Part shown: positions 42,462-55,206 of the stretch, piece by piece
Numbering within the stretch: position 1 is the stretch's first letter
Layout of the letters: the number at the start of each line of letters is the position of its first letter
Assembly (NCBI GenBank): GCA_003635185.1
Contig: PYJA01000004.1
Span: 12,044-76,043, forward strand
DNA from: Candidatus Poribacteria bacterium
GTDB taxonomy: Bacteria > Poribacteria > WGA-4E > WGA-3G
Direction of reading: 5' to 3'
DNA length: 64,000 nt
Made by a program: the position numbers and the translations under genes
The notes under the pieces: model-generated
The model's database searches: none
Told to the model about the DNA's origin: nothing
Seen by the model: the letters and a program-made list of their open reading frames with translations, nothing else

Positions 42462-43220
42462 CTAAATCGGGAACTGATGGTTACCAGCAGTCAATCCACC
42501 ATCAATGACAAAAACCGCACCTGTTGCAAAACTCGCCTCATCAGATGCAAGGAACAGCGCGGCGTTTGCGATGTCCACGGGTTTTCCGATGCGTCCCAGC
42601 GGATACCATGGCGTGATTTCATCTAATATATTTGGGTTGCGTTCAAGCATCGGTTCCCAGACCTCAGTCTGCACGGTGCCGGGGCAAATACAGTTGATAC
42701 GAATGTTATCTTTACCGTGTGCGACTGCCATAGACCGAGTCAACGCAATTACACCACCCTTTGCAGCAGAATAGGCGTGAATTCCCTGCAACCCAATAAG
42801 ACCGTTGACAGATGCGATGTTGACAATGCTCCCGCCACCACCTTTTTGCATAATCGGTATCACAGCGTTACTACAGTGACTTGGGCCTTGCAGTGCAACT
42901 GATAAGTTTGCTTCCCAGTTGTTGTTTAGGACATCTTTTGTAGAACAGATAGCGTTATTTACCAGGACATCAACTGTTCCGTAGGTGTCCACAGTCCCGT
43001 TTATAAGTTTTTCTGCATCTGCAGTATCAGAGACATCGGCATTGACAAAAAGTGCTTCGCCGCCTGCATCGGTGATAGTGGAAACAGTGGCTGTGCCGAT
43101 GGTATCGTTTACATCATCAACGACAACTTTAGCACCTTCTTCAGCAAACCGAATGGCGATTGCTCTGCCGATACCGCGCCCTGCGCCTGTGACAATGGCT
43201 ATTTTATCTTTTAACCGCAT
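42462..43220 (-). CDS. Short-chain dehydrogenase/reductase (FabG-like)
   Basis: Start at MRLKDKIAIVTGAGRGIGRAIA, NNAI, catalytic YSAAK. Confidence 0.85.
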   Translation of the reverse strand: MRLKDKIAIVTGAGRGIGRAIAIRFAEEGAKVVVDDVNDTIGTATVSTITDAGGEALFVNADVSDTADAEKLINGTVDTYGTVDVLVNNAICSTKDVLNNNWEANLSVALQGPSHCSNAVIPIMQKGGGGSIVNIASVNGLIGLQGIHAYSAAKGGVIALTRSMAVAHGKDNIRINCICPGTVQTEVWEPMLERNPNILDEITPWYPLGRIGKPVDIANAALFLASDEASFATGAVFVIDGGLTAGNHQFPI

Positions 43221-43304
43221 GATGTGTTTTTCGTATTCTTTTTTGTATTTGTATGGTATAATAAATTGCAGATTGAAGCGAGGACTTATGCAATTAAAAT
43301 AGAT

Positions 43305-43661
43305 ATGACCCAACCAATTTTTAACTACGACGAAGCAAGCGATACACTTTACATCTCTTATGCCCCCGGTGAACAAGCAACAGGTATTGAGTTAACACCC
43401 CACATATTGCTCCGGCTCAACAAACAAGAGCGCCGCGCTATTGGGATGACTTTTTTGGAGTATTCTTTGCTTGCTCAAAAAACTGACATGGGACCTCGGA
43501 GTTTTCCACTCACAGGTTTATCCGAATTGTCTGACGATCTGCGAGACATTGTTATAGATGTTCTCCAACGTCCCCCTGTCAGTGATGTGCTTTTGCTCTC
43601 ATCTTACACACCATCAATTTCTGAAACGATTCCGATCATGCTATTGCAAACTGCTTACTAA
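43305..43661 (+). CDS. DUF2283-like small protein
   Basis: NYDEASDTLYISYAPGEQATGIELTPHILLRL is typical of DUF2283 N-termini. Confidence 0.45.
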   Translation: MTQPIFNYDEASDTLYISYAPGEQATGIELTPHILLRLNKQERRAIGMTFLEYSLLAQKTDMGPRSFPLTGLSELSDDLRDIVIDVLQRPPVSDVLLLSSYTPSISETIPIMLLQTAY

Positions 43662-43698
43662 CTATAGTGAACTTGAGAATTAACGAGACATTTTGAAA

Positions 43699-43801
43699 TG
43701 TAGGAGGGAACTCCGATTCCCGACTATCAGTGAGTTCCGTCGCGATTCGGAGATCGCTCCTACAGAAAATGTGTATCTTTATTTTTAAAGTGCACTATAA
43801 A
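43699..43801 (+). repeat. Dispersed repeat family D, copy 2
   Basis: tgtaggagggaactccgattcccgactatcagtgagttccgtcgcgattcggagatcgctcctaca...gtgcactataaa. Confidence 0.65.
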
Positions 43802-43900
43802 TGAAAATTAAGACAATCTCAGGAATCAGAGAATAGAGAAGGACAGCAGCGGGTGGTTGCTGTTTAGTTCAAGGTATGCTTCAATCATGGCACTGACACC

Positions 43901-44917
43901 TTATAATCGCTCCTCCAAAAACGCAATCCCAGGCTCCAAATCAATCTCGTGCTCCCCTTGAAAATGATCCAACACTAACCGATCGCGTTTTCCACATGCG
44001 GTGTATATCTTTTCAAGATGTTCAAACGCTGCTAAAGCATCAGACTCAATAAAGCATCGGTCATCAGAACCGATTTGTGCCATACACGAACGCGGTGCGA
44101 TCAGCCCTGCTACGTCTGCAATATCACCCGCTGCGCGTAGCCCAAACATAAATTGGGAGCCACATGTGTTCCCACGCCCACGGTCCCCTAATGCATCTAT
44201 CAAGGTGCTAAGATAACAGACAATGACAGCCGCCTTAATTCGTCTATCAAAAGCAGAAATATAGGTCGTCATCGTACCGCCAAACGAACATCCCATACAA
44301 CCTAACCGACCACCATCCACTTCAGGACGAGACAGCAGATAGTCCAAGCACCGTTGCCCATCCGAAATGTTGAGTTGGAGCAGCTGATAACCGAAATATC
44401 CGAGTGCGAAATAGGCAGCGTTACACCCATCTCTGCCTGGGCGGCGCACCCATTCATCCCTGTCTTTACGTTCACCGAAGCATCGCCAATCTGGTGCAAG
44501 CGTAACAAACCCGCGTTGTGCAAGTTCCACAGCATACTGTTTCTGATAGTCCTCTACTATACCAACTGCCCCATCTTTTCCGACCCCATGCCCATGCGCG
44601 CAGAGTACCGCTGGTGCAGGATTGTCAGCACTTGCACTATCCGGTATCAAAATGTATGCTGGAATTGACGAAAAAGCATCGGGATTGAAAATAATCTTTT
44701 CACGTGTATATCCATCTTGTTGTATCTGCTCTAAAGTTTCTACTTCTAACGGCACTGGTTCAGGTTTTGGACCTAAGTAACGAGACATGTTACGTCTGAA
44801 TTTCCTACGCCACTCTTGCCACTCCTCTTTGGTTGTGCCATCAAAGTAAAGCGGTGGTGTTGTTTTCAGAAGATGCTCAACGCTCTGTTCTGCTGTCAAA
44901 AATCTCTCTGTTGCCAT
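43901..44917 (-). CDS. Alpha/beta hydrolase (acetyl-xylan-esterase / dienelactone-hydrolase-like)
   Basis: Nucleophile elbow GCSFGG, a preceding HGHG oxyanion region, and a C-terminal GEHE histidine. Confidence 0.6.
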   Translation of the reverse strand: MATERFLTAEQSVEHLLKTTPPLYFDGTTKEEWQEWRRKFRRNMSRYLGPKPEPVPLEVETLEQIQQDGYTREKIIFNPDAFSSIPAYILIPDSASADNPAPAVLCAHGHGVGKDGAVGIVEDYQKQYAVELAQRGFVTLAPDWRCFGERKDRDEWVRRPGRDGCNAAYFALGYFGYQLLQLNISDGQRCLDYLLSRPEVDGGRLGCMGCSFGGTMTTYISAFDRRIKAAVIVCYLSTLIDALGDRGRGNTCGSQFMFGLRAAGDIADVAGLIAPRSCMAQIGSDDRCFIESDALAAFEHLEKIYTACGKRDRLVLDHFQGEHEIDLEPGIAFLEERL

Positions 44918-44979
44918 AAGATGTGTCTCCTATTGTGCTGCGTTTTCATAACGTGCGGGTATTTTAACACGAAAAGGTA

Positions 44980-45008
44980 TTGATGGCAAAGGCAATTTAT
45001 GTTATAAT
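44980..45008 (+). promoter_or_regulatory. Sigma-70-like promoter for the TA pair (TTGATG-17 nt-TATAAT)
   Basis: ttgatg at 44980-44985, a 17-nt spacer, tataat at 45003-45008, 45 nt upstream of the ATG at 45053. Confidence 0.45.
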
Positions 45009-45052
45009 TACGCATAGTCAGTTATGATAAGATAACGAGAGGAGAAAGCACA

Positions 45053-45253
45053 ATGTCACGTCTCGAAAAAATTCAACAAGAGATTCTCGCACTACCTGAG
45101 GCAGAATACAAACAATTGCGACAGTGGTTCAGTGAATTGGATTGGGAAAAATGGGACCAGGAGATTGAAGCAGATTCAAAAGCCGGAAAATTGGATTTTT
45201 TGATTGCAGAAGCTCTTGAAGAAAAAGAAAAAGGAACACTCAAGGACCTTTAG
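45053..45253 (+). CDS. Small antitoxin-like protein
   Basis: 66 aa, acidic. GAGAGGAG RBS. Its stop abuts the toxin start. Confidence 0.5.
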   Translation: MSRLEKIQQEILALPEAEYKQLRQWFSELDWEKWDQEIEADSKAGKLDFLIAEALEEKEKGTLKDL

Positions 45254-45508
45254 GTGCACACAACTACCTCCCGATTCTGGAGATTTTTTCAGCAACTTCC
45301 CGAACCAGTGCAAAGGACTGCAAGACAGAATTTCGAACTTCTCAAAGTTAACCCACGACACCCATCTCTACATTTCAAGAAAGTTGGCAACTATTGGTCT
45401 GCTCGCGTAGGGCAAGATTATAGAGCACTTGCCATTAAAAACGGAAATGATTTCACTTGGGTTTGGATTGGCAAGCATGATGAATATGAGAGGTTAATTA
45501 ATTCCTGA
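45254..45508 (+). CDS. RelE/ParE-superfamily toxin
   Basis: 84 aa; NPRHPSLHFKKV....WSARVGQDYRALA......TWVWIGKHDEYERLI pattern; GTG start. Confidence 0.6.
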   Translation: MHTTTSRFWRFFQQLPEPVQRTARQNFELLKVNPRHPSLHFKKVGNYWSARVGQDYRALAIKNGNDFTWVWIGKHDEYERLINS

Positions 45509-45577
45509 TTCTACCCTCATGCAAAGAGAAAAAATTAAGAAATAAAACAAATTTCCCTCGCATTTGATAAAGATTCC

Positions 45578-47470
45578 CTACCAAGGCTGCTTATACGATG
45601 GCACATTAACAAAACGTTCCATTCCTACCGCTAACGCAATATGCGTATTCGGCGGCAGGTGAACTTGCAGATACGTACCGTTGACAGAAACGGCGTTCTC
45701 ACCGTTACCCTCTTTGGCGCGTACAGTTGTAAAATTGTGTTCACCCATCGCTCCCGCTTGGACAATCACATCACGTGCTTCAGTGGCATTTAGATTAACC
45801 AATTCCAGTTCAGTCGTGTCGGCAGTCAGTTTAGATACCAACACAGCAACATCCGCTGGCAGCCCAGGACGTTTCTCTTGTGGATCAAAGTGCCGTACCC
45901 GTGTCACAAGCAATCCGCCATTATAGTGTGGCAACGGACCACCACATGTGAGTTCAACTAATCCTTCACAAGTAACGGGGTTACGTCTCTGGAAATACGC
46001 GTCTCCGTATCCTGCTGGATCTTCTTCATCATTTTCCATGAAGTTGAGTCGTTGTTGAACTTGCGATAGGTTATGATTGAGGATGGATTCTGGATATTCA
46101 GGAAAATCCCCTCGCATATATGCCAACCATCCACCATCGCGTCCGCCTTGGTCTTTGGTGTGATGCCATGCGTTGATGTCAAATTTCGATCCTGTCTTTT
46201 TAGCAATCTGCACCGCACGACGTTGGTCAGCATCATCCATTGACATTGCCCAAAGGTGTGCCACATCAGATGGATGCATCGGCGCGAATTCAAACCAACC
46301 ATCAATCTGTAATGTAGTGTCATCCTCGTTTTTTATTGGATACTGCATCCACGGACCTGGCGTATAGTTTGCAATTCCAGGATCACCATACTTCTGCGGC
46401 ACATAGAGTTGGTCGTTGTGTTCTATACCGTGCTGTATGAGAACATCAATCTGGGAACGCGGGAAGTCCATATAGGATAAATCTCTGTGAAGGAGTGCAG
46501 CGTTCTGTCCTGCAACACTCACTGCTTGACCAACGCTATGCCAGCCGTGGGGCCAACTCCAACCATAGCGAGAACCATACCACTTACCATCTATATGTTC
46601 ACCGATTACGCCCGAAAGCCCAACGTTATCAGGGACGATTCCACCATTTTCTTCTGTGCGGCTAATCCACGCATCAACATATTCCTGAACCCATGCTTCA
46701 TACTTTTCCTCACCTGTGAACATATAAGCATTGGTAGCAAGAGTCGTTGCTGCGAGATTGCCGACTGCGTCCCCTTTTCCTTGACGTTCATAGACAACCC
46801 GTCCCATCAGATCACGCAATTCATCGCTTTCCAGCATCACATCACGACTTGTGCAGCCCGGCACATCAATAAACGGCAAATTGTAACCCATTGAGGGATA
46901 AAAAGATTCTCTTTCCAGTATCCAAAATGCGGGTCCCTTACTACCGTTCATTACACACTTGATGATTTTGTGTTCGGGGTCGTAATTCTGCGCATCAGGG
47001 TCTTCGTTCATAAAGAATCCTGCGAATCGGACAGCACGTTCAATATTTTTTGTATGTGACGGATCCGCCATGCACAGCATGTAAAACAGATAGTTCCCTT
47101 CGCTTTGGTGAAACCAGTCATATCCCGGTTGATATTCCTTATAGACCATTGGATAGTCGTGCCCAGAGCCGTAGCGCGTCATGTCTATCGTGATAGCTTC
47201 AAATTCGGTTTGCGCATCTACCAAGAACTGCGCATCTCCACCAAGCATGTAGAAAAGGGGCCAGTTATGGAAACTCTCATAGGCATCGTCTAATCCATCA
47301 AAACTTTGAAATTCTGGATGATTCGGCCAGAACAACGTTCCATCTGGACGCGTATATTTCTTCAAAACTTTCGGTGCCGCGTCATTGATTTTGTCAATTA
47401 GTTCACGTTCAAGCACTGCCCACTCTGGCGGTGTTTGGATAGAAGTTTGTGCTTCAATTGTTGGAAACAT
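45578..47470 (-). CDS. Large conserved-looking hypothetical protein (630 aa)
   Basis: The ATG at 47470 follows GGAGGAA. Rich in W/Y/H/D, which could suggest a carbohydrate-active or lyase-like fold, but I recognise no motif. Confidence 0.5.
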   Translation of the reverse strand: MFPTIEAQTSIQTPPEWAVLERELIDKINDAAPKVLKKYTRPDGTLFWPNHPEFQSFDGLDDAYESFHNWPLFYMLGGDAQFLVDAQTEFEAITIDMTRYGSGHDYPMVYKEYQPGYDWFHQSEGNYLFYMLCMADPSHTKNIERAVRFAGFFMNEDPDAQNYDPEHKIIKCVMNGSKGPAFWILERESFYPSMGYNLPFIDVPGCTSRDVMLESDELRDLMGRVVYERQGKGDAVGNLAATTLATNAYMFTGEEKYEAWVQEYVDAWISRTEENGGIVPDNVGLSGVIGEHIDGKWYGSRYGWSWPHGWHSVGQAVSVAGQNAALLHRDLSYMDFPRSQIDVLIQHGIEHNDQLYVPQKYGDPGIANYTPGPWMQYPIKNEDDTTLQIDGWFEFAPMHPSDVAHLWAMSMDDADQRRAVQIAKKTGSKFDINAWHHTKDQGGRDGGWLAYMRGDFPEYPESILNHNLSQVQQRLNFMENDEEDPAGYGDAYFQRRNPVTCEGLVELTCGGPLPHYNGGLLVTRVRHFDPQEKRPGLPADVAVLVSKLTADTTELELVNLNATEARDVIVQAGAMGEHNFTTVRAKEGNGENAVSVNGTYLQVHLPPNTHIALAVGMERFVNVPSYKQPW

Positions 47471-47565
47471 AGTTGATTTCCTCCGTGTTGAATGTTCAGA
47501 ATTCGGTTTGTTGCAGTATAGCACATTTTTGCATTTTTGTGTCCGTTTTGTTTTATAGAAACAAT

Positions 47566-47594
47566 TTGCGATGTGGTGTGTGTTGTGCTATACT
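47566..47594 (+). promoter_or_regulatory. Putative promoter with extended -10 (TTGCGA-17-TGCTATACT) upstream of PIN module 1
   Basis: tgtgctatact at 47584-47594. Its inverted twin agtatagcaca at 47515-47525 faces the divergent gene that starts at 47470. Confidence 0.4.
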
Positions 47595-47695
47595 TATGTA
47601 TGAACTAAGAAATAGAAGACAAAGGACTATAAACTACCTCCTAAATATGATTTTGACGGAGTTTGGATATACGTGTGCAAGCCGATTCAAGACCT

Positions 47696-48163
47696 TTGAA
47701 AATTTATCTTGATACCTGTTGTTTAAGTCGACTTTTTGATCCACTAACCCAAGCGCGGGTTCGTCAAGAAGCCGAGGCTGTCAATCGTATCCTCACTTAT
47801 TGCTTCAGTGGACATTGGTATTGGATTGCGAGCGACGTTTTATTAAATGAAGTCAACCGGACTCCGGACTTAGAAGAACGCACGCAAATTAAAACTTGGC
47901 TAACTTTTGCATACCAGACTGTCCACATTGGAGTAGGCGAAATATCAAGAGGAATCCAACTTGAAGCATTGGGATTTAAGGGGCGAGATGCTTTACATCT
48001 CGCCTGTGCTGAAAGTGGCGAAGTGAATTTCTTTCTCACAACCGATGATCGGCTGCTCAGCAGAGCAAAACGTTATCCAAATCGGCTTCACATTCATGTT
48101 GAGAATCCTTATACATGGTTACGGGAGACAGAGAATGGACATCTTAGAAATGACAGATCTTGA
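47696..48163 (+). CDS. PIN-domain protein (putative toxin), module 1
   Basis: (M)KIYLDTCCLSRLFD, EAEAV, DALHLACAE, LTTDDRL acidic quartet. TTG start chosen by analogy with module 2. Confidence 0.65.
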   Translation: MKIYLDTCCLSRLFDPLTQARVRQEAEAVNRILTYCFSGHWYWIASDVLLNEVNRTPDLEERTQIKTWLTFAYQTVHIGVGEISRGIQLEALGFKGRDALHLACAESGEVNFFLTTDDRLLSRAKRYPNRLHIHVENPYTWLRETENGHLRNDRS

Positions 48164-48608
48164 GATTTATGAACTTGGGACTAAAAAACTTACAGAGCAA
48201 ATGGGTACGACGTATGCCACACAGTTTCTGCAGAAATGCAAACCACGTGACTATGATTACACCGCTGATCGACATAAATGGCTAGCTGACGACCCGGATA
48301 TCCTCACGATGGCAAAGCAGATTCAAGAAGAAAAAGCGTTGCAAGCAAAGGAAGAAAGCGTTAAAGCTGAAAGAATTGCCGCGTGGCGAAGCGGTTTATT
48401 AGAACTCACCGATCTTGAGATCTATGGACTCGGGTTTAAAGTCCTTGCGGAGAGCCTTGGTGCTTACGGGGTGTTGCGGTTCATCACGCAGCATTTCAAA
48501 CATCTCAATAGTGATCAACCTATTGACAAACCACAGCAGTTTCAGTCGGATAGCGATGTTAGTAGTGCCATGCAGACGATGAAAGAGAACAAACTGCCGC
48601 AAGATTAA
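48135..48608 (+). CDS. PIN-associated partner protein (two MTD.EIYELG repeats), module 1
   Basis: MDILEMTDLEIYELGTKKL...LELTDLEIYGLGFKVL. It overlaps the PIN stop by 29 nt and is a paralog of the N-terminus of 49280-50362. Confidence 0.5.
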   Translation: MDILEMTDLEIYELGTKKLTEQMGTTYATQFLQKCKPRDYDYTADRHKWLADDPDILTMAKQIQEEKALQAKEESVKAERIAAWRSGLLELTDLEIYGLGFKVLAESLGAYGVLRFITQHFKHLNSDQPIDKPQQFQSDSDVSSAMQTMKENKLPQD

Positions 48609-48685
48609 ATGAAATACGAGCATTCGGAACACTTCAACATTTATCTTACTAATATGAGAAAACTGTGTATTTTGGCAACGAATAA

Positions 48686-48841
48686 CTTGCAATAATCAAC
48701 GAAGATGTGCTGACGACCCGTGCTATCGAAAAAGACAGCGTTGACCTCATCGTCACATCATCTCCTTACAACGTTGATATAAAATATAACTCAAATGACG
48801 GTGCGCGCTCTTATACGGACTATCTTTTTTGGAATCTATGA
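48686..48841 (+). pseudogene. 5' fragment of an N6/N4 DNA methyltransferase gene
   Basis: The translation LAIINEDVLTTRAIEKDSVDLIVTSSPYNVDIKYNSNDGARSYTDYL carries the motif IV region (DLIVTSSPY) of amino-methyltransferases. It has no start codon and ends at the ATG of the PIN gene (ctATGA). Confidence 0.55.
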
Positions 48842-49293
48842 GAATTTATCTTGATACCTGTTGTTTGAGTCGGCGTTTTGACGATCAGACGCAAACTCGA
48901 ATTCATCAAGAAACTGAAGCAATCAGACAGATACTTGATTATTTTCAAGATGGACATTGGCTTTGGATATCCAGCGATGTTTTAGTTGATGAAATAGAAA
49001 ACAATCCTAATGAAACAAAACGGATTCAAATCAAAAGGTGGCTAATTCACGTTGACCAAGATATTTCTGTTGAAACGAGTGAAATTTCAAGAGGCAGACA
49101 GTTAGAAACGTTGACGTTTCAAGCAATGGATGCATTGCATCTTGCTTGTGCTGAGAGCGGATCGGCAGATGTTTTGTTAACAACAGACGACAGGTTACTC
49201 AATAAGGCGAGAAACGTGCAAACTCAACTTAACATTGAAGTTGATAATCCTCTGGAATGGTTACAGAAGGTAAGAAAAAATGAACATACTTGA
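48838..49293 (+). CDS. PIN-domain protein (putative toxin), module 2
   Basis: MRIYLDTCCLSRRFDD..., DALHLACAESG, LTTDDRLL; paralog of 47696-48163. Confidence 0.65.
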   Translation: MRIYLDTCCLSRRFDDQTQTRIHQETEAIRQILDYFQDGHWLWISSDVLVDEIENNPNETKRIQIKRWLIHVDQDISVETSEISRGRQLETLTFQAMDALHLACAESGSADVLLTTDDRLLNKARNVQTQLNIEVDNPLEWLQKVRKNEHT

Positions 49294-50362
49294 AATGACA
49301 GATAAAGAACTATATGAACTCGGTCAAAAGGCACTTGCGGATAAACTTGGTGCCGATCAGGCCGAGCGGTTTATTCGGCAATGCAAACCGGGTGAGGGTG
49401 ACTACTCCGTTGATCGCCATAAATTGTTAGCAAATCAGGGAGATATTGACACAATTGTAGCGCGTATCCGACGGAGAGAAGTGGAGCGAAAAGAGGAAGA
49501 ACGTAAACGTGCTGAAAGATTCGCTGCGCCTCAAAGCGAAATCCGAAAAATGACGGATATTGAAATTTTTGAAATCGGACTTACAGTTCTTGTTGATAAA
49601 CTTGGAGTCGCTGGATACTGGGGGTTTTTTCAACAGTGTCAAGAGATTAATAGAGGTTATCCTATTGAATACATTCAAAATAAAGAAGATGCCGAAAAAG
49701 AAATTGCACTTTACACGGCAGGCATAACGCTTAATCCGAAAATGGTTGAGAATTATATCAAGCGTGGCAATGCCTATAGTTACATCAGAGAATATGACAA
49801 AGCCATCGCAGATTATAGTGAAGCGATAAAACTCAAACCCAATTATGCTGAAGCTTACAGCAACCGCGCAAAGGTGCACGTCAAAAAAGCCGATTTTGAA
49901 AGAGCAATTGAAGACTATACCAAGGCAATAGAACTCAATCCGCAAGACGTTGATGCGTATTACACGCGCGGTAAACTTTACGTTGAGGGAAATGAATATG
50001 ATAAGGCGATCGCTGACTTTAGCTTGGCAATAAAACTTGACCCTGAGCATGCCGATGCATCTGGTTATCGCGCTACTCTTTATGGTGAACGAGGCAAGTA
50101 TGACAAAGCAATTGAAGGATTCAGTAAGGAAATTGAACTCCGACCCTATGATGCTGAGACTTACGAAGATCGCGGTAGAATTTACGTCAAAATAGGTGAG
50201 TATGACAAAGCAATTGCGGACTTTACTGAGGCGATAAAACTTATCCCAGACTTCACGGATGCTTATTTCGAACGCGCTATGACTTATTTGCGAATGGACA
50301 ATTTGGAGTCCGCAATGCAAGATTTTGACAAGATTTCAGAGTTGAAACAAGAATTTACGTAA
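49280..50362 (+). CDS. PIN-associated partner fused to a C-terminal TPR domain
   Basis: The N-terminal 120 aa are paralogous to 48135-48608. About 6-7 TPR units follow (AIADYSEAIKLKPNYAEAYSNRA...). Confidence 0.65.
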   Translation: MNILEMTDKELYELGQKALADKLGADQAERFIRQCKPGEGDYSVDRHKLLANQGDIDTIVARIRRREVERKEEERKRAERFAAPQSEIRKMTDIEIFEIGLTVLVDKLGVAGYWGFFQQCQEINRGYPIEYIQNKEDAEKEIALYTAGITLNPKMVENYIKRGNAYSYIREYDKAIADYSEAIKLKPNYAEAYSNRAKVHVKKADFERAIEDYTKAIELNPQDVDAYYTRGKLYVEGNEYDKAIADFSLAIKLDPEHADASGYRATLYGERGKYDKAIEGFSKEIELRPYDAETYEDRGRIYVKIGEYDKAIADFTEAIKLIPDFTDAYFERAMTYLRMDNLESAMQDFDKISELKQEFT

Positions 50363-50586
50363 ATCCATTTCGAGTAAACAATGTAACGAGAAACGTAAAG
50401 GAACGTGAGCTCGGTAAAAAGGACATGAAGTTTTTCGTGCCATGAATTTACTCTTACAACCTTGGTAGATAAGATTTCTAATCGCAGCAATTCCCAAAAT
50501 TGCTTATACAGAACTCACGTCAATATCATTTTTGGAAACTCAATAAGGTAATTTGAACTTTATCATGAGATTGAGAACAATTATAT

Positions 50587-51213
50587 ATGGAAAATTCTAA
50601 TGCAAGGACAATTAAAGTACAATGGGATCGACTGTGTGACTTAATCAAAAAACTGGAGTTAGAAATCGCCCAAACTGATTTTCCTATCCCAACACCTCAA
50701 ATGTGCAAACTGCTTATTGTTGGTGAAGACCGTCGCTTTTATAAACATTCTGGGGTTGATCTGTTTGCACTTTGTAGAGCACTTTGGAAAACTTTTTTTT
50801 GTAGAGTTAGACAGGGTGGTTCAACAATAGCCATGCAGTTTGTCAGGACAGTTACAGGTCGTTATGAAAAAACGTGGCGGAGAAAATTTATTGAGATTTT
50901 TTTTGCTGTCCGTTTGACGCGATATATTCCGAAAGATCGATTGCCAATTCTTTACTTATGGGTTGCGTACTACGGTTGGGGAATGAACAATTTTAGGCAG
51001 GCTTGCTCAAGGCTGGAAATTAATCCAAAATCAATTAGTGTTTTTGAAGCTGCTAAACTCGTTGCTCGATTGAAATATCCAGAGCCCCGAGAATGTAGTT
51101 CTGAACATTTAGGGAAAATTGAGCGTAGAGGTCGTCATTTAATAACGTTAGCCGATAACATGAGTGAAAATCTAAAATCTTATCAGGAGATTCAACAAAA
51201 TGAAACCTTTTGA
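50587..51213 (+). CDS. Stand-alone GT51 (peptidoglycan glycosyltransferase / PBP transglycosylase)-like domain protein without a membrane anchor
   Basis: GT51 motifs in order: GEDRRFYKHSGVD, RQGGSTIAMQFVR, RRKFIEIFFAVRL, KDRLPILYLWVAYYGWG, FEAAKLVARLKYPEP. There is no hydrophobic N-terminus, and an in-frame stop lies at 50572-50574. Confidence 0.65.
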   Translation: MENSNARTIKVQWDRLCDLIKKLELEIAQTDFPIPTPQMCKLLIVGEDRRFYKHSGVDLFALCRALWKTFFCRVRQGGSTIAMQFVRTVTGRYEKTWRRKFIEIFFAVRLTRYIPKDRLPILYLWVAYYGWGMNNFRQACSRLEINPKSISVFEAAKLVARLKYPEPRECSSEHLGKIERRGRHLITLADNMSENLKSYQEIQQNETF

Positions 51214-51889
51214 AATTGGAATAGCACTCCGAAAATTGCTTGGTCACTATCCCGATCCAGAATTGTTACTCCAAGTAGCACTTGAAGGTGGCAAAGAAGC
51301 CCAAGGTGCAATTGCAAGACTATGGTTATCTGAAGGAATACCGTCTATTTTTTGCATTTGTCCGGCCATATATGATTCTCTTCGTTGTTGGATTGCAGAG
51401 TGTTTAGAGGTTAAAGCAAAAGAAATTGGTCTGGTAGGAAGTGCTCAGTTGGGCAAATCTCTTGACCCTTGTAAACTCGGTACCCCTTTTATTGATAGGA
51501 GGTCGGACCTTGACTTTTTTATTGTTTCAAGTAATTTATTTGCAAAGTTAAAAGAAGATTTTGAATGTTGGTCAGACGACTTTAAGGGTGGACGATTAAG
51601 TGCATATAATCGTGAAAGGAGATTTTGGAAAAGTAATTTAAAACGAAGCTCAAACAATATCAATAGAGGGTTTATTGATGCAAATACAATTCCTTCCTTT
51701 CCCGAATACCCTACTGCGGAGAAAATACAAAAAATAATGGAACTTTTAATCCTGAGACTGAAAAACACTAAGGATGCTCCAAAACCCCAAAAAGCATCTA
51801 TTCGATGTTATACATCTTGGGATAGTTTTGTGCAACAGAAATCTCTGAACTTAAGACACTTGGCCGAACAGGTGAGAAAACAATTATAA
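51200..51889 (+). CDS. Pol-beta-superfamily nucleotidyltransferase-like protein
   Basis: hG[GS]x(n)D.D pattern: IGLVGSAQLGKSL...RRSDLDFFIVSS. Its start overlaps the upstream stop by 14 nt. Confidence 0.45.
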   Translation: MKPFEIGIALRKLLGHYPDPELLLQVALEGGKEAQGAIARLWLSEGIPSIFCICPAIYDSLRCWIAECLEVKAKEIGLVGSAQLGKSLDPCKLGTPFIDRRSDLDFFIVSSNLFAKLKEDFECWSDDFKGGRLSAYNRERRFWKSNLKRSSNNINRGFIDANTIPSFPEYPTAEKIQKIMELLILRLKNTKDAPKPQKASIRCYTSWDSFVQQKSLNLRHLAEQVRKQL

Positions 51890-51959
51890 AAATAGGGTTT
51901 ACGCAATGAGGTGCATAGTAATCTATTTGTACACCCAATTCACGTTAAAGGAGAAACTT

Positions 51960-52388
51960 ATGGTCTATACATTGACTATCCATCCAGAAATGACGTTCAA
52001 CGAGATAGCAACAGCAATTGCGGACACAATCCCGCATGAAAAAATTATTACAGCTGCAGAAAGTGTATTAGCAGATAAATCCGAACCTTTTAATCCTCTT
52101 AATCGTTCTGGTCCTTGGCGAGCTGCCCTTAACCGCACAGCTGAGGAGCATATTAGGAAAAATGAATTTTTACCTATTAAGACGATTGTAAACATAATGG
52201 TAAATCATTATATTGATTATCATAAAGACCTTTGTCCTCGCGCATCTGTTGGTGCTTTATACTATTTTGTAGACGACTGTGAAATATCTAAGAGTTACCC
52301 TATGTTAATAAGAGAGGTGTCAGACGTACTTTTCGATAGATACTATACACCTGAGAGTGTCGACGCTATCCGAGGGCAAGCTGCATAA
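51960..52388 (+). CDS. Hypothetical 143-aa protein
   Basis: The ATG at 51960 follows AAAGGAGA. No recognisable motif. Confidence 0.45.
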   Translation: MVYTLTIHPEMTFNEIATAIADTIPHEKIITAAESVLADKSEPFNPLNRSGPWRAALNRTAEEHIRKNEFLPIKTIVNIMVNHYIDYHKDLCPRASVGALYYFVDDCEISKSYPMLIREVSDVLFDRYYTPESVDAIRGQAA

Positions 52389-52504
52389 GTCAAGTATCTT
52401 TCCGAAACAATTACGCGCACTGAGACGTTTATTAAGAAGTTACGATTTTCTTTTGTTTTTAAGATATATAGACTTTTCCACCCGAACAAAATTGGGGCAA
52501 TTTC

Positions 52505-53818
52505 ATGTCACCAGACGCTATCCTTGAATGGTTTGATAGAACACCTATTGATAAAGATTGGTCATTCAGCGAATGTAAGCCATCAGATACAGGAAAATGG
52601 ACTCACGGTTACCATCGCTATCCCGCCAAGTTCATTCCACAACTTGTTGAGAAGTTAATGGATACCTACATAGACAATGATACTGCCAGTGTAAACGATC
52701 CGTTTATGGGATGTGGCACAACCATTGTCAGTGCAATATCGCGCGGTTTTCACGCCAGCGGAACGGACATCAATAAAATTGCTTATTTGATGACTGGGGC
52801 AAAAGCAAAAGCGATCTGTCCAGACTATCTTAAGAAAAAAGTTAATGATTTTCTGTTACAGATTTGTCCTCCTGAGATAGAGAGTGAATTGTTTAGTAAA
52901 AATCAGATAGAGCCTTGTATTCCTGAGAAACACTTAGAAAAGATAAACTACTGGTTTACAGAATCAGCACGAGATGAACTTGGGAAAATTTTAGCCGTAA
53001 TTCGTAAAGAAAAAGAATCTGTAATCAAGTCTTTTCTTCTTGTTGCATTTAGTCATGTTCTCAAAACATGTTCAATTTGGAGTCTAAGTAGTACTAAGCC
53101 TTCGCGCGATTTCAATAAACGGTCCACACTTCCCTATGATGCTATCAAAAGACACCTTCTGAAAATGCTAAAGGGAAATTCTCATTTTTACGATGTTGTA
53201 CCTTCTCATGTTAAAGACAATCCTGATAGTTACCTAAAAATTCGAATAGGTTGTGCCAAAGAGCAGCCTGTTCCAGATGATAGTGTTGATCTAATTGTAA
53301 GTTCAAGTCCGTATGTAACAAGCTATGAGTATGCTGATCTACATCAACTCTCAACGCTTTGGTTAGATTTAGCGGGCGACCTCAAAGAGTATAGAAAAGA
53401 GTTTATTGGCACCTCCTATAAGCATTACCAGAATAAGGCATTAAAGAGTCTAATAGCTTCCAAGATTGTTGATGAAATGGAGCAAAAGAATAGAAAAAAA
53501 GCAAAGGAGATTGATGCCTTCTATATTGATATGCAGGAGGTTTTTAACGAGAGTTATAGGATTTTAAAACTAGGTGGTAGGTGTTGTTATGTGATTGGGA
53601 ACACTAAATTACGCGGAGTTGATATTCTTAACGCAGAAGCATTTGCAGACTCCTTGCAGCATTCAGGATTTAAACTTGATCGACTAATTAAACGGGAAAT
53701 ACCTTTGAAAATTCTCCCACAGACAAGGGACGAAAAAACGGGCAGATTTGCAAGTAAGGATAAGGCAGATGCACAAGCATATCCAACGGAGTACATTGTT
53801 ATCGGATTAAAGGAATAG
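52505..53818 (+). CDS. N6-adenine/N4-cytosine DNA methyltransferase (motif I before motif IV)
   Basis: AdoMet motif NDPFMGCGTT (about aa 65) and catalytic motif DLIVSSSPYVTSYEY (about aa 265). Confidence 0.8.
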   Translation: MSPDAILEWFDRTPIDKDWSFSECKPSDTGKWTHGYHRYPAKFIPQLVEKLMDTYIDNDTASVNDPFMGCGTTIVSAISRGFHASGTDINKIAYLMTGAKAKAICPDYLKKKVNDFLLQICPPEIESELFSKNQIEPCIPEKHLEKINYWFTESARDELGKILAVIRKEKESVIKSFLLVAFSHVLKTCSIWSLSSTKPSRDFNKRSTLPYDAIKRHLLKMLKGNSHFYDVVPSHVKDNPDSYLKIRIGCAKEQPVPDDSVDLIVSSSPYVTSYEYADLHQLSTLWLDLAGDLKEYRKEFIGTSYKHYQNKALKSLIASKIVDEMEQKNRKKAKEIDAFYIDMQEVFNESYRILKLGGRCCYVIGNTKLRGVDILNAEAFADSLQHSGFKLDRLIKREIPLKILPQTRDEKTGRFASKDKADAQAYPTEYIVIGLKE

Positions 53819-53824
53819 ACAGTT

Positions 53825-54514
53825 ATGAAGTTTGAAGATTTGAAAGATATGTACAGTGAGACACAATTGGTAGAAGGTGAAGAGGCGTACAGATCAGTTT
53901 CTGAACTTTTGCGAAATGCGAAAGAACAGCATAAACAGGATTTTTTGAGAGATAGACCTGACGGAGACCATGAACAGAGCTGGCGGGCTTTCAAGGGAAA
54001 GAATTTTGAAAAGTTAATCCAACATATTATCACAGAGTCAATTGAAGCACTTGGTATGAGAGTTATAAACGGTAATAAATTAGAGCGGAGCACGAGCCTG
54101 TCTTACGAATTGAGCTTAGTTAAGCGAAATTTAGCTATTGATTATGGGGAATTTGGATTACATTTACCCGATGTTGATATTGTGGTTTATAATCCCGAAA
54201 ACATGAAAGTGATTGCTGTAATTTCCAGCAAAGTCACACTCCGTGAGCGAATTGCCCAGACAGGTTATTGGAAGCTCAAGTTATTAGCGGATAAAACAAC
54301 AGAACACATCAAGGTTTACTTCATTACTCCAGACGAAGATGGTACCTTGACGACTACATATCTTCCCAAAAAAGGACGTGCCATTGTTGAGATTGACCTT
54401 GACGGCACTTATGTACTAACGGAGGCGGATATAGAAGAAAGCGATAAGGTAAAACTATTTGAACATTTCATTGAGGATTTCAAACAACTGATAGAAGACG
54501 ACCATACTTTTTGA
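53825..54514 (+). CDS. Putative restriction endonuclease subunit A (PD-(D/E)xK-like)
   Basis: The candidate nuclease core LPDVDIVVYNP....VIAVISSKVTLRERIAQTGYW lies directly downstream of the methyltransferase. Confidence 0.5.
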   Translation: MKFEDLKDMYSETQLVEGEEAYRSVSELLRNAKEQHKQDFLRDRPDGDHEQSWRAFKGKNFEKLIQHIITESIEALGMRVINGNKLERSTSLSYELSLVKRNLAIDYGEFGLHLPDVDIVVYNPENMKVIAVISSKVTLRERIAQTGYWKLKLLADKTTEHIKVYFITPDEDGTLTTTYLPKKGRAIVEIDLDGTYVLTEADIEESDKVKLFEHFIEDFKQLIEDDHTF

Positions 54515-54534
54515 GTTTGTTAAAGGATAATGCT

Positions 54535-55206
54535 ATGGGCAAGTATAGTTTTGAAGATGTTAAGAAATTGTATTATGAAATGGAACAAATTAAAGGCAAG
54601 GAAGCCTATAGATACGTTTCCGATGTCCTTGAAATGGCGAAGGAACCTCATAGAAGAGATTTCTTGAAACGTAACCCTAAGGGGAATCATCAACAAAGTT
54701 GGAATAATTTTAAAGGAAATTGCTTTGAAAAACTACTTCAGCATATTATCACAAAGTCGGTTGAACCATTTGGGCTAAAAGTAGTTAACGACAAAGAGTT
54801 AAAAAAGAAAAGACTGTCGGAACAATTAGTTGCTGTAAAACGAAACTTAGTTATTGATTATGGCAAATATGGGATGCATTTACCAGATGCAGATATAGTT
54901 ATCTACAATCCCAAGAAATGTAGAGTGATCGCTGTAATTTCATGCAAAACCTCTTTGAGAGAAAGAATTGCTCAAACAGGTTATTGGAAGTTCAAATTTT
55001 GGGAAAATGAAATTACAAAACATATCCAGGTATATCTGGTTACCGCTGATACAGATAATACGTTGACAAAAATAGAACCTTTCAAAAAAGCTCGTGCGAT
55101 TGTTGAAATTGATCTTGACGGTGTTTATGTCTTAACAAAAGAAAACCTTCATGAAAGCGACAAGGTCAAACTTTTTGAGCATTTCATTGAAGATTTTAAG
55201 CAATGA
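54535..55206 (+). CDS. Putative restriction endonuclease subunit B (paralog of A)
   Basis: Roughly 60% identical by eye to 53825-54514 (LPDADIVIYNP....VIAVISCKTSLRERIAQTGYW). The ATG at 54535 follows AAAGGA. Confidence 0.5.
   Translation: MGKYSFEDVKKLYYEMEQIKGKEAYRYVSDVLEMAKEPHRRDFLKRNPKGNHQQSWNNFKGNCFEKLLQHIITKSVEPFGLKVVNDKELKKKRLSEQLVAVKRNLVIDYGKYGMHLPDADIVIYNPKKCRVIAVISCKTSLRERIAQTGYWKFKFWENEITKHIQVYLVTADTDNTLTKIEPFKKARAIVEIDLDGVYVLTKENLHESDKVKLFEHFIEDFKQ

Follow-up and report, generated by a model that had tools for sequence, protein, structure and literature searches.

This report concerns a two-gene cassette of Candidatus Poribacteria, located on contig PYJA01000004.1 (assembly GCA_003635185.1) within a stretch of 64,000 nucleotides (nt), here called the window, whose first letter is position 1. 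The cassette is made up of open reading frame 1 (ORF1), which encodes a peptidoglycan glycosyltransferase (GT51) domain protein without a membrane anchor, and ORF2, which encodes a partner protein from a new family. ORF2 is the obligate partner of the anchorless GT51 protein; both genes occur together, evolve together and in some cases are fused. As a self-contained unit of 1.3-1.5 kb, the cassette moves horizontally, and occasionally it takes the form of one fused gene. The feature is genuine, and it is both unusual and strongly conserved.

Antibiotics target GT51 enzymes, which textbooks describe as polymerases working outside the cytoplasm. The large family to which ORF1 belongs (its partner forms 1,302 clusters at 50% identity in an exhaustive profile search, and the pair occurs in more than 10 phyla) appears to break this rule, being anchorless, intact in its catalytic residues and predicted to face the cytoplasm.

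The anchorless GT51 protein and its partner

The pairing of the two genes was assessed from both sides. Among loci seeded with the GT51 gene (one genome per species, n=70), a homologue of ORF2 lies directly downstream in 61 of the 70, across more than 10 phyla. In loci seeded with ORF2 from metagenomes and genomes, and limited to those with enough upstream sequence, a GT51 gene lies directly upstream in 79/79. When all ORFs in the GT51-seeded loci were clustered, the ORF1 and ORF2 clusters alone recurred and no third gene was conserved. The pairwise identities of the two genes correlate (r=0.66), and their junctions overlap or abut in most homologous loci (coordinates of 56 loci). An earlier note, made from the letters of this DNA alone, had suggested translational coupling from an overlap of 14 nt; the overlap is confirmed, an AGGAG sequence precedes the ORF2 start (Table 1), and the pairing counts and the fusions show that the two genes are truly coupled. 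The same note had conceded that the homologues of ORF1 could be fragments of penicillin-binding proteins (PBPs) with no conserved nucleotidyltransferase (NTase) neighbour, or the pairing unique to this contig. Both clearly proved not to be the case, given 61/70, 79/79, the many phyla and the fusions.

Among the clusters of the ORF2 family, at least five true fusions of 428-634 amino acids (aa) were found, with the GT51 domain N-terminal and the ORF2 domain C-terminal (P0209, P0282, P0291, P0319 and P0286). The 634-aa fusion P0286 has an additional C-terminal region of ~180 aa without a Pfam match, and an N-terminal segment that resembles a transmembrane (TM) helix. A 521-aa GT51-ORF2 ‘fusion’ in locus L026 was rejected as an ORF-calling artefact of GC-rich DNA, its N-terminal half being out of the GT51 frame.

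Anchorless GT51 genes that lack ORF2 (L017, L054, L058, L060, L064, L066, L067 and L068) have other adjacent or fused partners, none of them with a Pfam match. The alternative partners include ~200-aa proteins in Acinetobacter haemolyticus, Moraxellaceae and Anditalea, and the product of a 356-aa downstream gene in L017. The presence of these other neighbours suggests partner swapping. At nine more divergent anchorless GT51 loci, no divergent ORF2 was found by hidden Markov model (HMM) search (E>0.5).

ORF1 matches the Pfam family Transgly (PF00912) with E=4.7e-28 and 98.2 bits against a cutoff of 27, over profile positions 24-171 of 178. All five GT51 motifs are present, including GGSTIxxQ and both catalytic Glu residues (within EDxxF and RKxxE), and E47 and E103 align with the catalytic Glu of Aquifex PBP1a, so that the full motif set claimed earlier is upheld. 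The family profile, compared with PDB, aligns to the GT domain of Aquifex PBP1a (2oqo/3nb6) over residues 39-184 with E ~1e-19. A protein search gave 393 relatives, nearly all of 197-232 aa, and 116/116 aligned relatives keep E47, D48, G77, S79, T80, Q84, R87, R99, K100 and E103. The fold was checked on an AlphaFold2 (AF2) model of the fusion P0282, a family member 51% identical to ORF1 and standing in for it; the GT51 half superposes on 3nb6 with a TM-score of 0.72, a root-mean-square deviation of 2.8 Å and a probability of 1.0. Because the GT51 residues are fully conserved in a large stand-alone family of ~200 aa, ORF1 is, judged by its sequence, an intact enzyme under selection and not a PBP fragment.

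ORF1 contains no TM segment (top 19-aa Kyte-Doolittle window 0.97), and an in-frame TGA at 50572-50574, 12 nt 5′ of the ATG at 50587, excludes a missed N-terminal anchor, as had been argued in the earlier note. A hydrophobic or TM-like segment is also absent in 106/120 relatives. An N-terminal helix is found in ~12% of relatives, which form a subclade of ~232-aa proteins. In this subclade the N-flank of the helix is free of K/R, and the C-flank of 15 residues carries a charge of +2 to +6 (+3 or more in 12/13). The positive-inside rule is the established basis for predicting orientation from flank charge, and on these charges it predicts an N-out/C-in topology, with the GT51 domain tethered at the cytoplasmic face, the opposite of MtgA and the PBPs. 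In the fusions, a single chain carries the GT51 domain and the ORF2 domain with no TM segment between them. From the conserved cysteines given below, these fusions, the charge bias and the missing anchors we infer a cytoplasmic location for the GT51 domain. The TM-bearing subclade (P0058, P0061, P0072, P0077, P0078, P0098 and others; loci L007 and L008) has an acidic N-flank and an Arg-rich C-flank, and it retains the pairing with ORF2.

MtgA and the GT domains of class A PBPs (Aquifex PBP1a, 2OQO/3NB6; S. aureus MtgA, 3VMT) share with ORF1 the fold, the five motifs, the catalytic Glu residues and the Lys/Arg residues of lipid-pyrophosphate binding. Whereas MtgA and the PBPs have an N-in/C-out anchor, the ORF1 family has none, or a helix with the opposite predicted topology. 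The family is further set apart by an N-terminal amphipathic helix of its own, a YLW-AYYGW / LKYPEP signature, cysteines C40, C63 and C140 that are invariant or close to it, a less hydrophobic jaw segment and an obligate partner or fusion. The cassette is mobile and patchy in distribution, in contrast to the core-genome MtgA and PBP genes.

In ORF2, the residues G80, S81, G85, S102, D103 and D105 are kept in 205-206/206 relatives, E45, P48, R62 and R202 are almost absolutely kept, and D160 of the RGFID motif is present in 184/206. The VGSAQLG...SDLDFF motif is invariant in the family. The AF2 model of ORF2 has a predicted local distance difference test (pLDDT) score of 96.1 and a predicted template modelling (pTM) score of 0.90. 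In the model, GS lies right after strand 76-79, D103-L-D105-F is on strand 104-109 and F-I-D160 is on strand 158-160. With invariant catalytic-type residues on successive strands, ORF2 looks like an enzyme. In the classification of Kuchta et al., pol-beta NTases are reportedly defined by the motifs hG[GS], [DE]h[DE]h and h[DE]h. The motif trio of ORF2 and the order of its strands fit this pattern.

Table 1. Features of the cassette and its insertion site (window positions)
Feature	Position	Strand	Details
Left copy of imperfect direct repeat	50393..50403	.	ACGTAAAGGAA; junction alignment against the empty site
Insertion with ORF1 and ORF2 only	50404..51945	.	1,542 bp; missing from the orthologous site in L164, a related genome
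ORF1, GT51 (peptidoglycan glycosyltransferase) domain protein, anchorless	50587..51213	+	208 aa; PF00912; catalytic E47/D48, E103; GGSTIAMQ; R87, R99, K100
Overlap of ORF1 stop and ORF2 start	51200..51213	+	14 nt; AGGAG at 51185-51189, 10 nt 5′ of the ORF2 ATG
ORF2, partner from new family	51200..51889	+	229 aa; invariant G80-S81, S102-D103-x-D105, RGFID (D160), E45, R62, R202; fold unmatched
Right copy of imperfect direct repeat	51942..51953	.	ACGTTAAAGGAG; overlaps the ribosome-binding site of ORF3; junction alignment

Mobility and genomic contexts of the cassette

The boundaries of the insertion are set by comparison with the related genome L164, in which the cassette is missing. By blastn, L164 3865-4992 corresponds to window 49273-50402 and L164 4986-8242 to window 51946-55199, at 82-89% identity. 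As synteny is continuous on both sides of the empty site, an insertion of 1,542 bp is delimited. It is bordered by an imperfect direct repeat, of which the empty site of L164 holds a single copy, ACATAAAGGAG. Two Poribacteria match the cassette alone, with unrelated flanks: L001 over 50582-51880 (88%) and L002 over 50522-51893 (81%). Close genomes differ in its presence or absence. The AT-richness formerly judged by eye is real but modest: the GC content is 37.8% in the cassette and 42.9% in the window, and among windows of the same size the cassette ranks at the 5th percentile.

Imperfect inverted repeats occur at both insertion ends (50402-50415 / 51933-51946, 11/14 nt), and a 17-nt stem with 82% complementarity is present at the left end, 5′ of ORF1 (50403-50419 / 50504-50520). 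These repeats and the stem are possibly due to chance or local, since they are not found in the cassette copies of L001 and L002. A scan for promoters and terminators returned nothing beyond shuffled controls.

The closest relatives are found in metagenome-assembled genomes (MAGs) of Poribacteria, Nitrospirales, Acidobacteriota, Latescibacterota, Binatia, Gemmatimonadota and Paracoccaceae, at 50-87% identity. The occurrence of such relatives in MAGs of many phyla suggests cross-phylum exchange. Homologues are also present in Yersinia, Aliarcobacter, Alcanivorax and Cohnella. Several isolate names (e.g. SB0665_bin, APA_bin and RHO1_bin) resemble what we take, from our own reading of the names only, to be sponge-metagenome labels. 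From phage sets the cassette is all but missing: collections of phages and plasmids gave 0 phage records, a single plasmid and two IMG/VR contigs.

The surroundings of the cassette vary and are often rich in defence genes or mobile genetic elements. On an Aliarcobacter plasmid it lies in a defence island with IS21, DUF4365, PLD, TIR, DUF4917 and Septu-like AAA+HNH, and in Yersinia intermedia it is directly 3′ of a phage-type integrase. Within the window, it is placed between PIN modules and a restriction-modification (R-M) unit. Across 149 flanking genes, type I R-M, GmrSD, Mrr, Schlafen/AlbA_2, DUF4276, UvrD and transposases are recurrent.

Possible functions of the cassette

The preferred reading is that the cassette is a conflict module that works from the cytoplasmic side on lipid-linked wall precursors, a tentative proposal whose probability falls a little below an even chance. 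Both proteins would work inside the cell, on the cytoplasmic face of the membrane. There the GT51 domain would engage, from the ‘wrong’ side, wall precursors linked to undecaprenyl pyrophosphate (lipid II or lipid I), and by polymerising or sequestering them would shut down wall synthesis. ORF2 would control or cooperate with GT51, most plausibly by nucleotidylylating the GT51 protein or its substrate, possibly in the manner of MntA-HepT; on ORF1, the invariant tyrosines Y123, Y128, Y129 and Y164 would be candidate sites. The cassette would then serve abortive infection, defence or addiction, and not housekeeping wall synthesis. A more specific version, possible but rather unlikely, would make the cassette a new kind of abortive-infection or addiction system. 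Once triggered, an inward-facing GT51 would polymerise or trap inner-leaflet lipid II, deplete undecaprenyl phosphate and so bring wall synthesis to collapse; the partner, an enzyme with NTase-like chemistry and a fold not seen before, would restrain GT51 or sense the invader. If the cassette is a conflict module, it would represent a new effector logic for defence and toxin-antitoxin (TA) systems, in which lipid-linked wall precursors are sabotaged from within, and would provide a genetically encoded tool to perturb lipid II pools. It is small (1.3 kb) and has a homologue in Yersinia intermedia.

Several results weigh against this reading. Toxicity, a defence role and the use of lipid II are properties that we infer from sequence. 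In PADLOC-DB v2.0.0, 0 families were matched by ORF1, ORF2 or the downstream ORF3 at E<=0.1. The association with defence islands is qualitative. The neighbour content is heterogeneous, with 134 Pfam families in 149 neighbours, and some copies stand alone among housekeeping genes (e.g. lnt, prfB and lysS). In the alignment to Aquifex PBP1a, the jaw segment of the ORF1 family is less hydrophobic than that of membrane GT51s (TITGRYE vs NLFLTRE), which could mean that the substrate is not membrane-embedded. The AF2 model of a natural fusion has confident domains joined by a disordered linker (pTM 0.58), so the interdomain geometry is undefined. The decay of one partner beside an intact other is rare and symmetric, as far as the coverage threshold and assembly errors, which confound the comparison, allow, so that no addiction signature is apparent. 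A broken GT51 gene beside an intact ORF2 was found in L031 and L134.

The assignment of ORF2 belongs with these points. The protein has no match in Pfam (even at E<=10), NCBIfam or PADLOC, and the HMM of its family has 0 matches among PDB sequences. Foldseek searches of the ORF2 model against PDB and BFVD gave nothing informative (best E 0.8-1.3, TM-score <0.2), and a search with the C-terminal half of the P0282 fusion model again returned no NTase or other fold. NTP_transf_2 is the sole Pfam family matched by more than one family member (3/31), with a best E of 0.057 that is not significant. An hhalign comparison with an alignment of MNT-type NTases (MntA/HI0073; PDB segments) aligned the motif block only (GS..G..SDLD), over 30 columns with a probability of 7% and P=0.005. 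The pol-beta NTase signature recorded in the earlier note is present, invariant and carried on strands in the expected order; the fold itself found no significant match by HMM or Foldseek. Because all independent tests of fold membership failed, ORF2 is treated as a protein with NTase-like motifs and an unverified fold. It is on balance likely to be a derived NTase; the NTase label may be wrong, and the model makes ORF2 a candidate for a new or strongly derived fold.

An unlikely explanation is that the genes form an accessory metabolic or envelope enzyme pair on mobile DNA, operating a two-step cytoplasmic pathway. For example, ORF2 would make or use a nucleotide-activated sugar or muropeptide that GT51 transfers, or the pair would take part in precursor processing or wall recycling. 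Enzyme-like invariant residues are kept in both proteins and fusion is typical of consecutive enzymes, as would be expected of such a pair; the copies amid housekeeping genes, a jaw suited to a soluble substrate and the missing addiction asymmetry point in the same direction. A metabolic pair is harder to reconcile with the patchy distribution across phyla, the presence/absence polymorphism between close genomes, the copies found next to an integrase, on a plasmid or within defence islands, the lack of conserved metabolic neighbours and the full retention of the canonical lipid-pyrophosphate-binding residues. It is quite improbable that the roles are reversed, with ORF2 an NTase-type toxin in the manner of AbiEii or MenT, which nucleotidylate tRNA, and GT51 its antitoxin or a sensor of perturbed wall precursors. 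The order of antitoxin upstream and toxin downstream is the commonest TA layout, the catalytic-type residues of ORF2 are strictly invariant and NTase toxins such as AbiE and MenAT are established. However, GT51 catalytic residues that are 100% conserved are unexpected for a mere antitoxin or scaffold, no relation of ORF2 to DUF1814/AbiEii or to any NTase family could be detected, and ORF2 persists intact in the two loci where GT51 is broken.

The gene order and overlapping junctions, along with variable contexts and horizontal transfer, would also suit an interbacterial effector-immunity pair, in which GT51 is delivered to competitors and ORF2 is the cytoplasmic immunity protein. This is very improbable: no recurrent secretion genes, PAAR/Rhs/VgrG or delivery domains were found nearby, a fusion of both on one chain would be self-defeating, and the invariant residues of ORF2 are of catalytic type, beyond what a binding surface needs. 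The possibility of an ordinary wall gene or relic, that is, a mis-started MtgA-type transglycosylase or a PBP fragment beside an unrelated gene, draws on database names; RefSeq calls a homologue of ORF1 ‘biosynthetic peptidoglycan transglycosylase’ and its partner ‘hypothetical protein’, and JGI labels relatives as PBPs. It is effectively excluded by the stop codon just ahead of the ORF1 start, by hundreds of full-length ~200-aa relatives with the same architecture, by the strictly conserved partner and by the behaviour of the cassette as an indel. The NCBIfam scores of ORF1 are also far under all MtgA and PBP cutoffs (e.g. mono_pep_trsgly, 53 bits where 183 are needed).

Known systems offer partial parallels to the proposed conflict module. 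The cassette has the generic traits of type II and type VII TA systems, being mobile and patchy with two small, co-oriented, overlapping genes. The zeta/PezT toxins (epsilon-zeta TA systems and the fused EzeT) are UDP-N-acetylglucosamine 3′-kinases which poison MurA and cause autolysis. They are a precedent for a mobile cytoplasmic toxin that corrupts the supply of peptidoglycan precursors, and a fused toxin-regulator form is known for them also. In contrast to the cassette, they are P-loop kinases unrelated to GT51; no Zeta_toxin match occurs in the cassette, and its putative target is a lipid-linked precursor. Colicin M, an imported periplasmic phosphoesterase, is a toxin that targets lipid II. 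Lipid-linked wall precursors are its lethal target, as is proposed for the cassette, but its fold is unrelated and ORF1 is a polymerase of the biosynthetic type whose predicted site of action is the cytoplasmic side.

The MNT-HEPN system (MntA-HepT, type VII TA) likewise consists of two overlapping genes with a small GS...DxD protein, and MntA neutralises its partner by adenylylation. Unlike that system, the cassette has no HEPN partner, ORF2 is 2x the size of an MNT and resembles one significantly neither by HMM nor by fold, and the NTase-like gene is downstream, so that the order is reversed. AbiE and MenAT (DUF1814 NTase toxins) are also mobile two-gene modules with an NTase-type active site in one of the two proteins. 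ORF2 differs in lacking similarity to DUF1814, and the upstream gene of the cassette encodes an enzyme instead of a COG5340/helix-turn-helix antitoxin. Judged against the PADLOC 2023 models and the full-text literature, in which no description of the GT51 and ORF2 pair was found, the cassette as a system resembles nothing described that was found and appears undescribed. The earlier view that the pairing is unlike described defence systems agrees with this and with the mobile and defence-type contexts.

ORF3 and neighbouring genes in the window

ORF3, which follows the cassette, is a real gene of 142 aa without a match in Pfam, NCBIfam or PADLOC, and the absence of a recognisable family was correctly noted earlier. 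Its start is placed at 51960, and not at 51906 as first given, because its homologues (11 clusters) are all 142 aa or shorter. No homologue of ORF3 is found in any of the 70 cassette loci. In related genomes it lies directly 5′ of the same methyltransferase (MTase) and BsaWI-like genes, with the GT51 pair absent. ORF3 belongs to the downstream R-M unit and not to the cassette, and the ‘trio’ of the earlier note is reduced to a pair. With ORF3 excluded, the feature ends at 51889 (the insertion at 51945) instead of 52388.

The conserved unit at 51960-55206 has four genes: ORF3, the gene for a type II MTase (N6/N4) and, in tandem, those for two BsaWI-like restriction endonuclease (REase) paralogues. 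L164 has this unit too; in L165 the REases are fragmented (87-117 aa), and ORF3 and the MTase persist. The flanks had been described as PIN modules with an MTase relic on one side and a type II-like R-M system on the other. The PIN genes upstream and the type II MTase and REases downstream are confirmed. No relic was detected 5′ of the cassette, where there is no MTase Pfam match and no [DNS]PP[YFWH] in any frame of 43000-50600.

Two tandem PIN-domain genes (47603-49272; 47663-50362) each have an overlapping partner bearing an N-terminal repeat, MxILEMTDxExYELG.... The partner of the second PIN gene is fused to a TPR array, and the second PIN protein weakly matches the PADLOC candidate PDC-M11A. 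The segment at 47603-49272, which covers the first PIN module together with the second PIN gene, is a second insertion relative to L164. The GC content of the island at 47.7-55.2 kb is 38.8%. At the edge of the variable region, 45053-45508 encodes a 66-aa protein and an abutting 84-aa ParE-like toxin (PF24732, E=2e-7), and this pair is a probable type II TA system.

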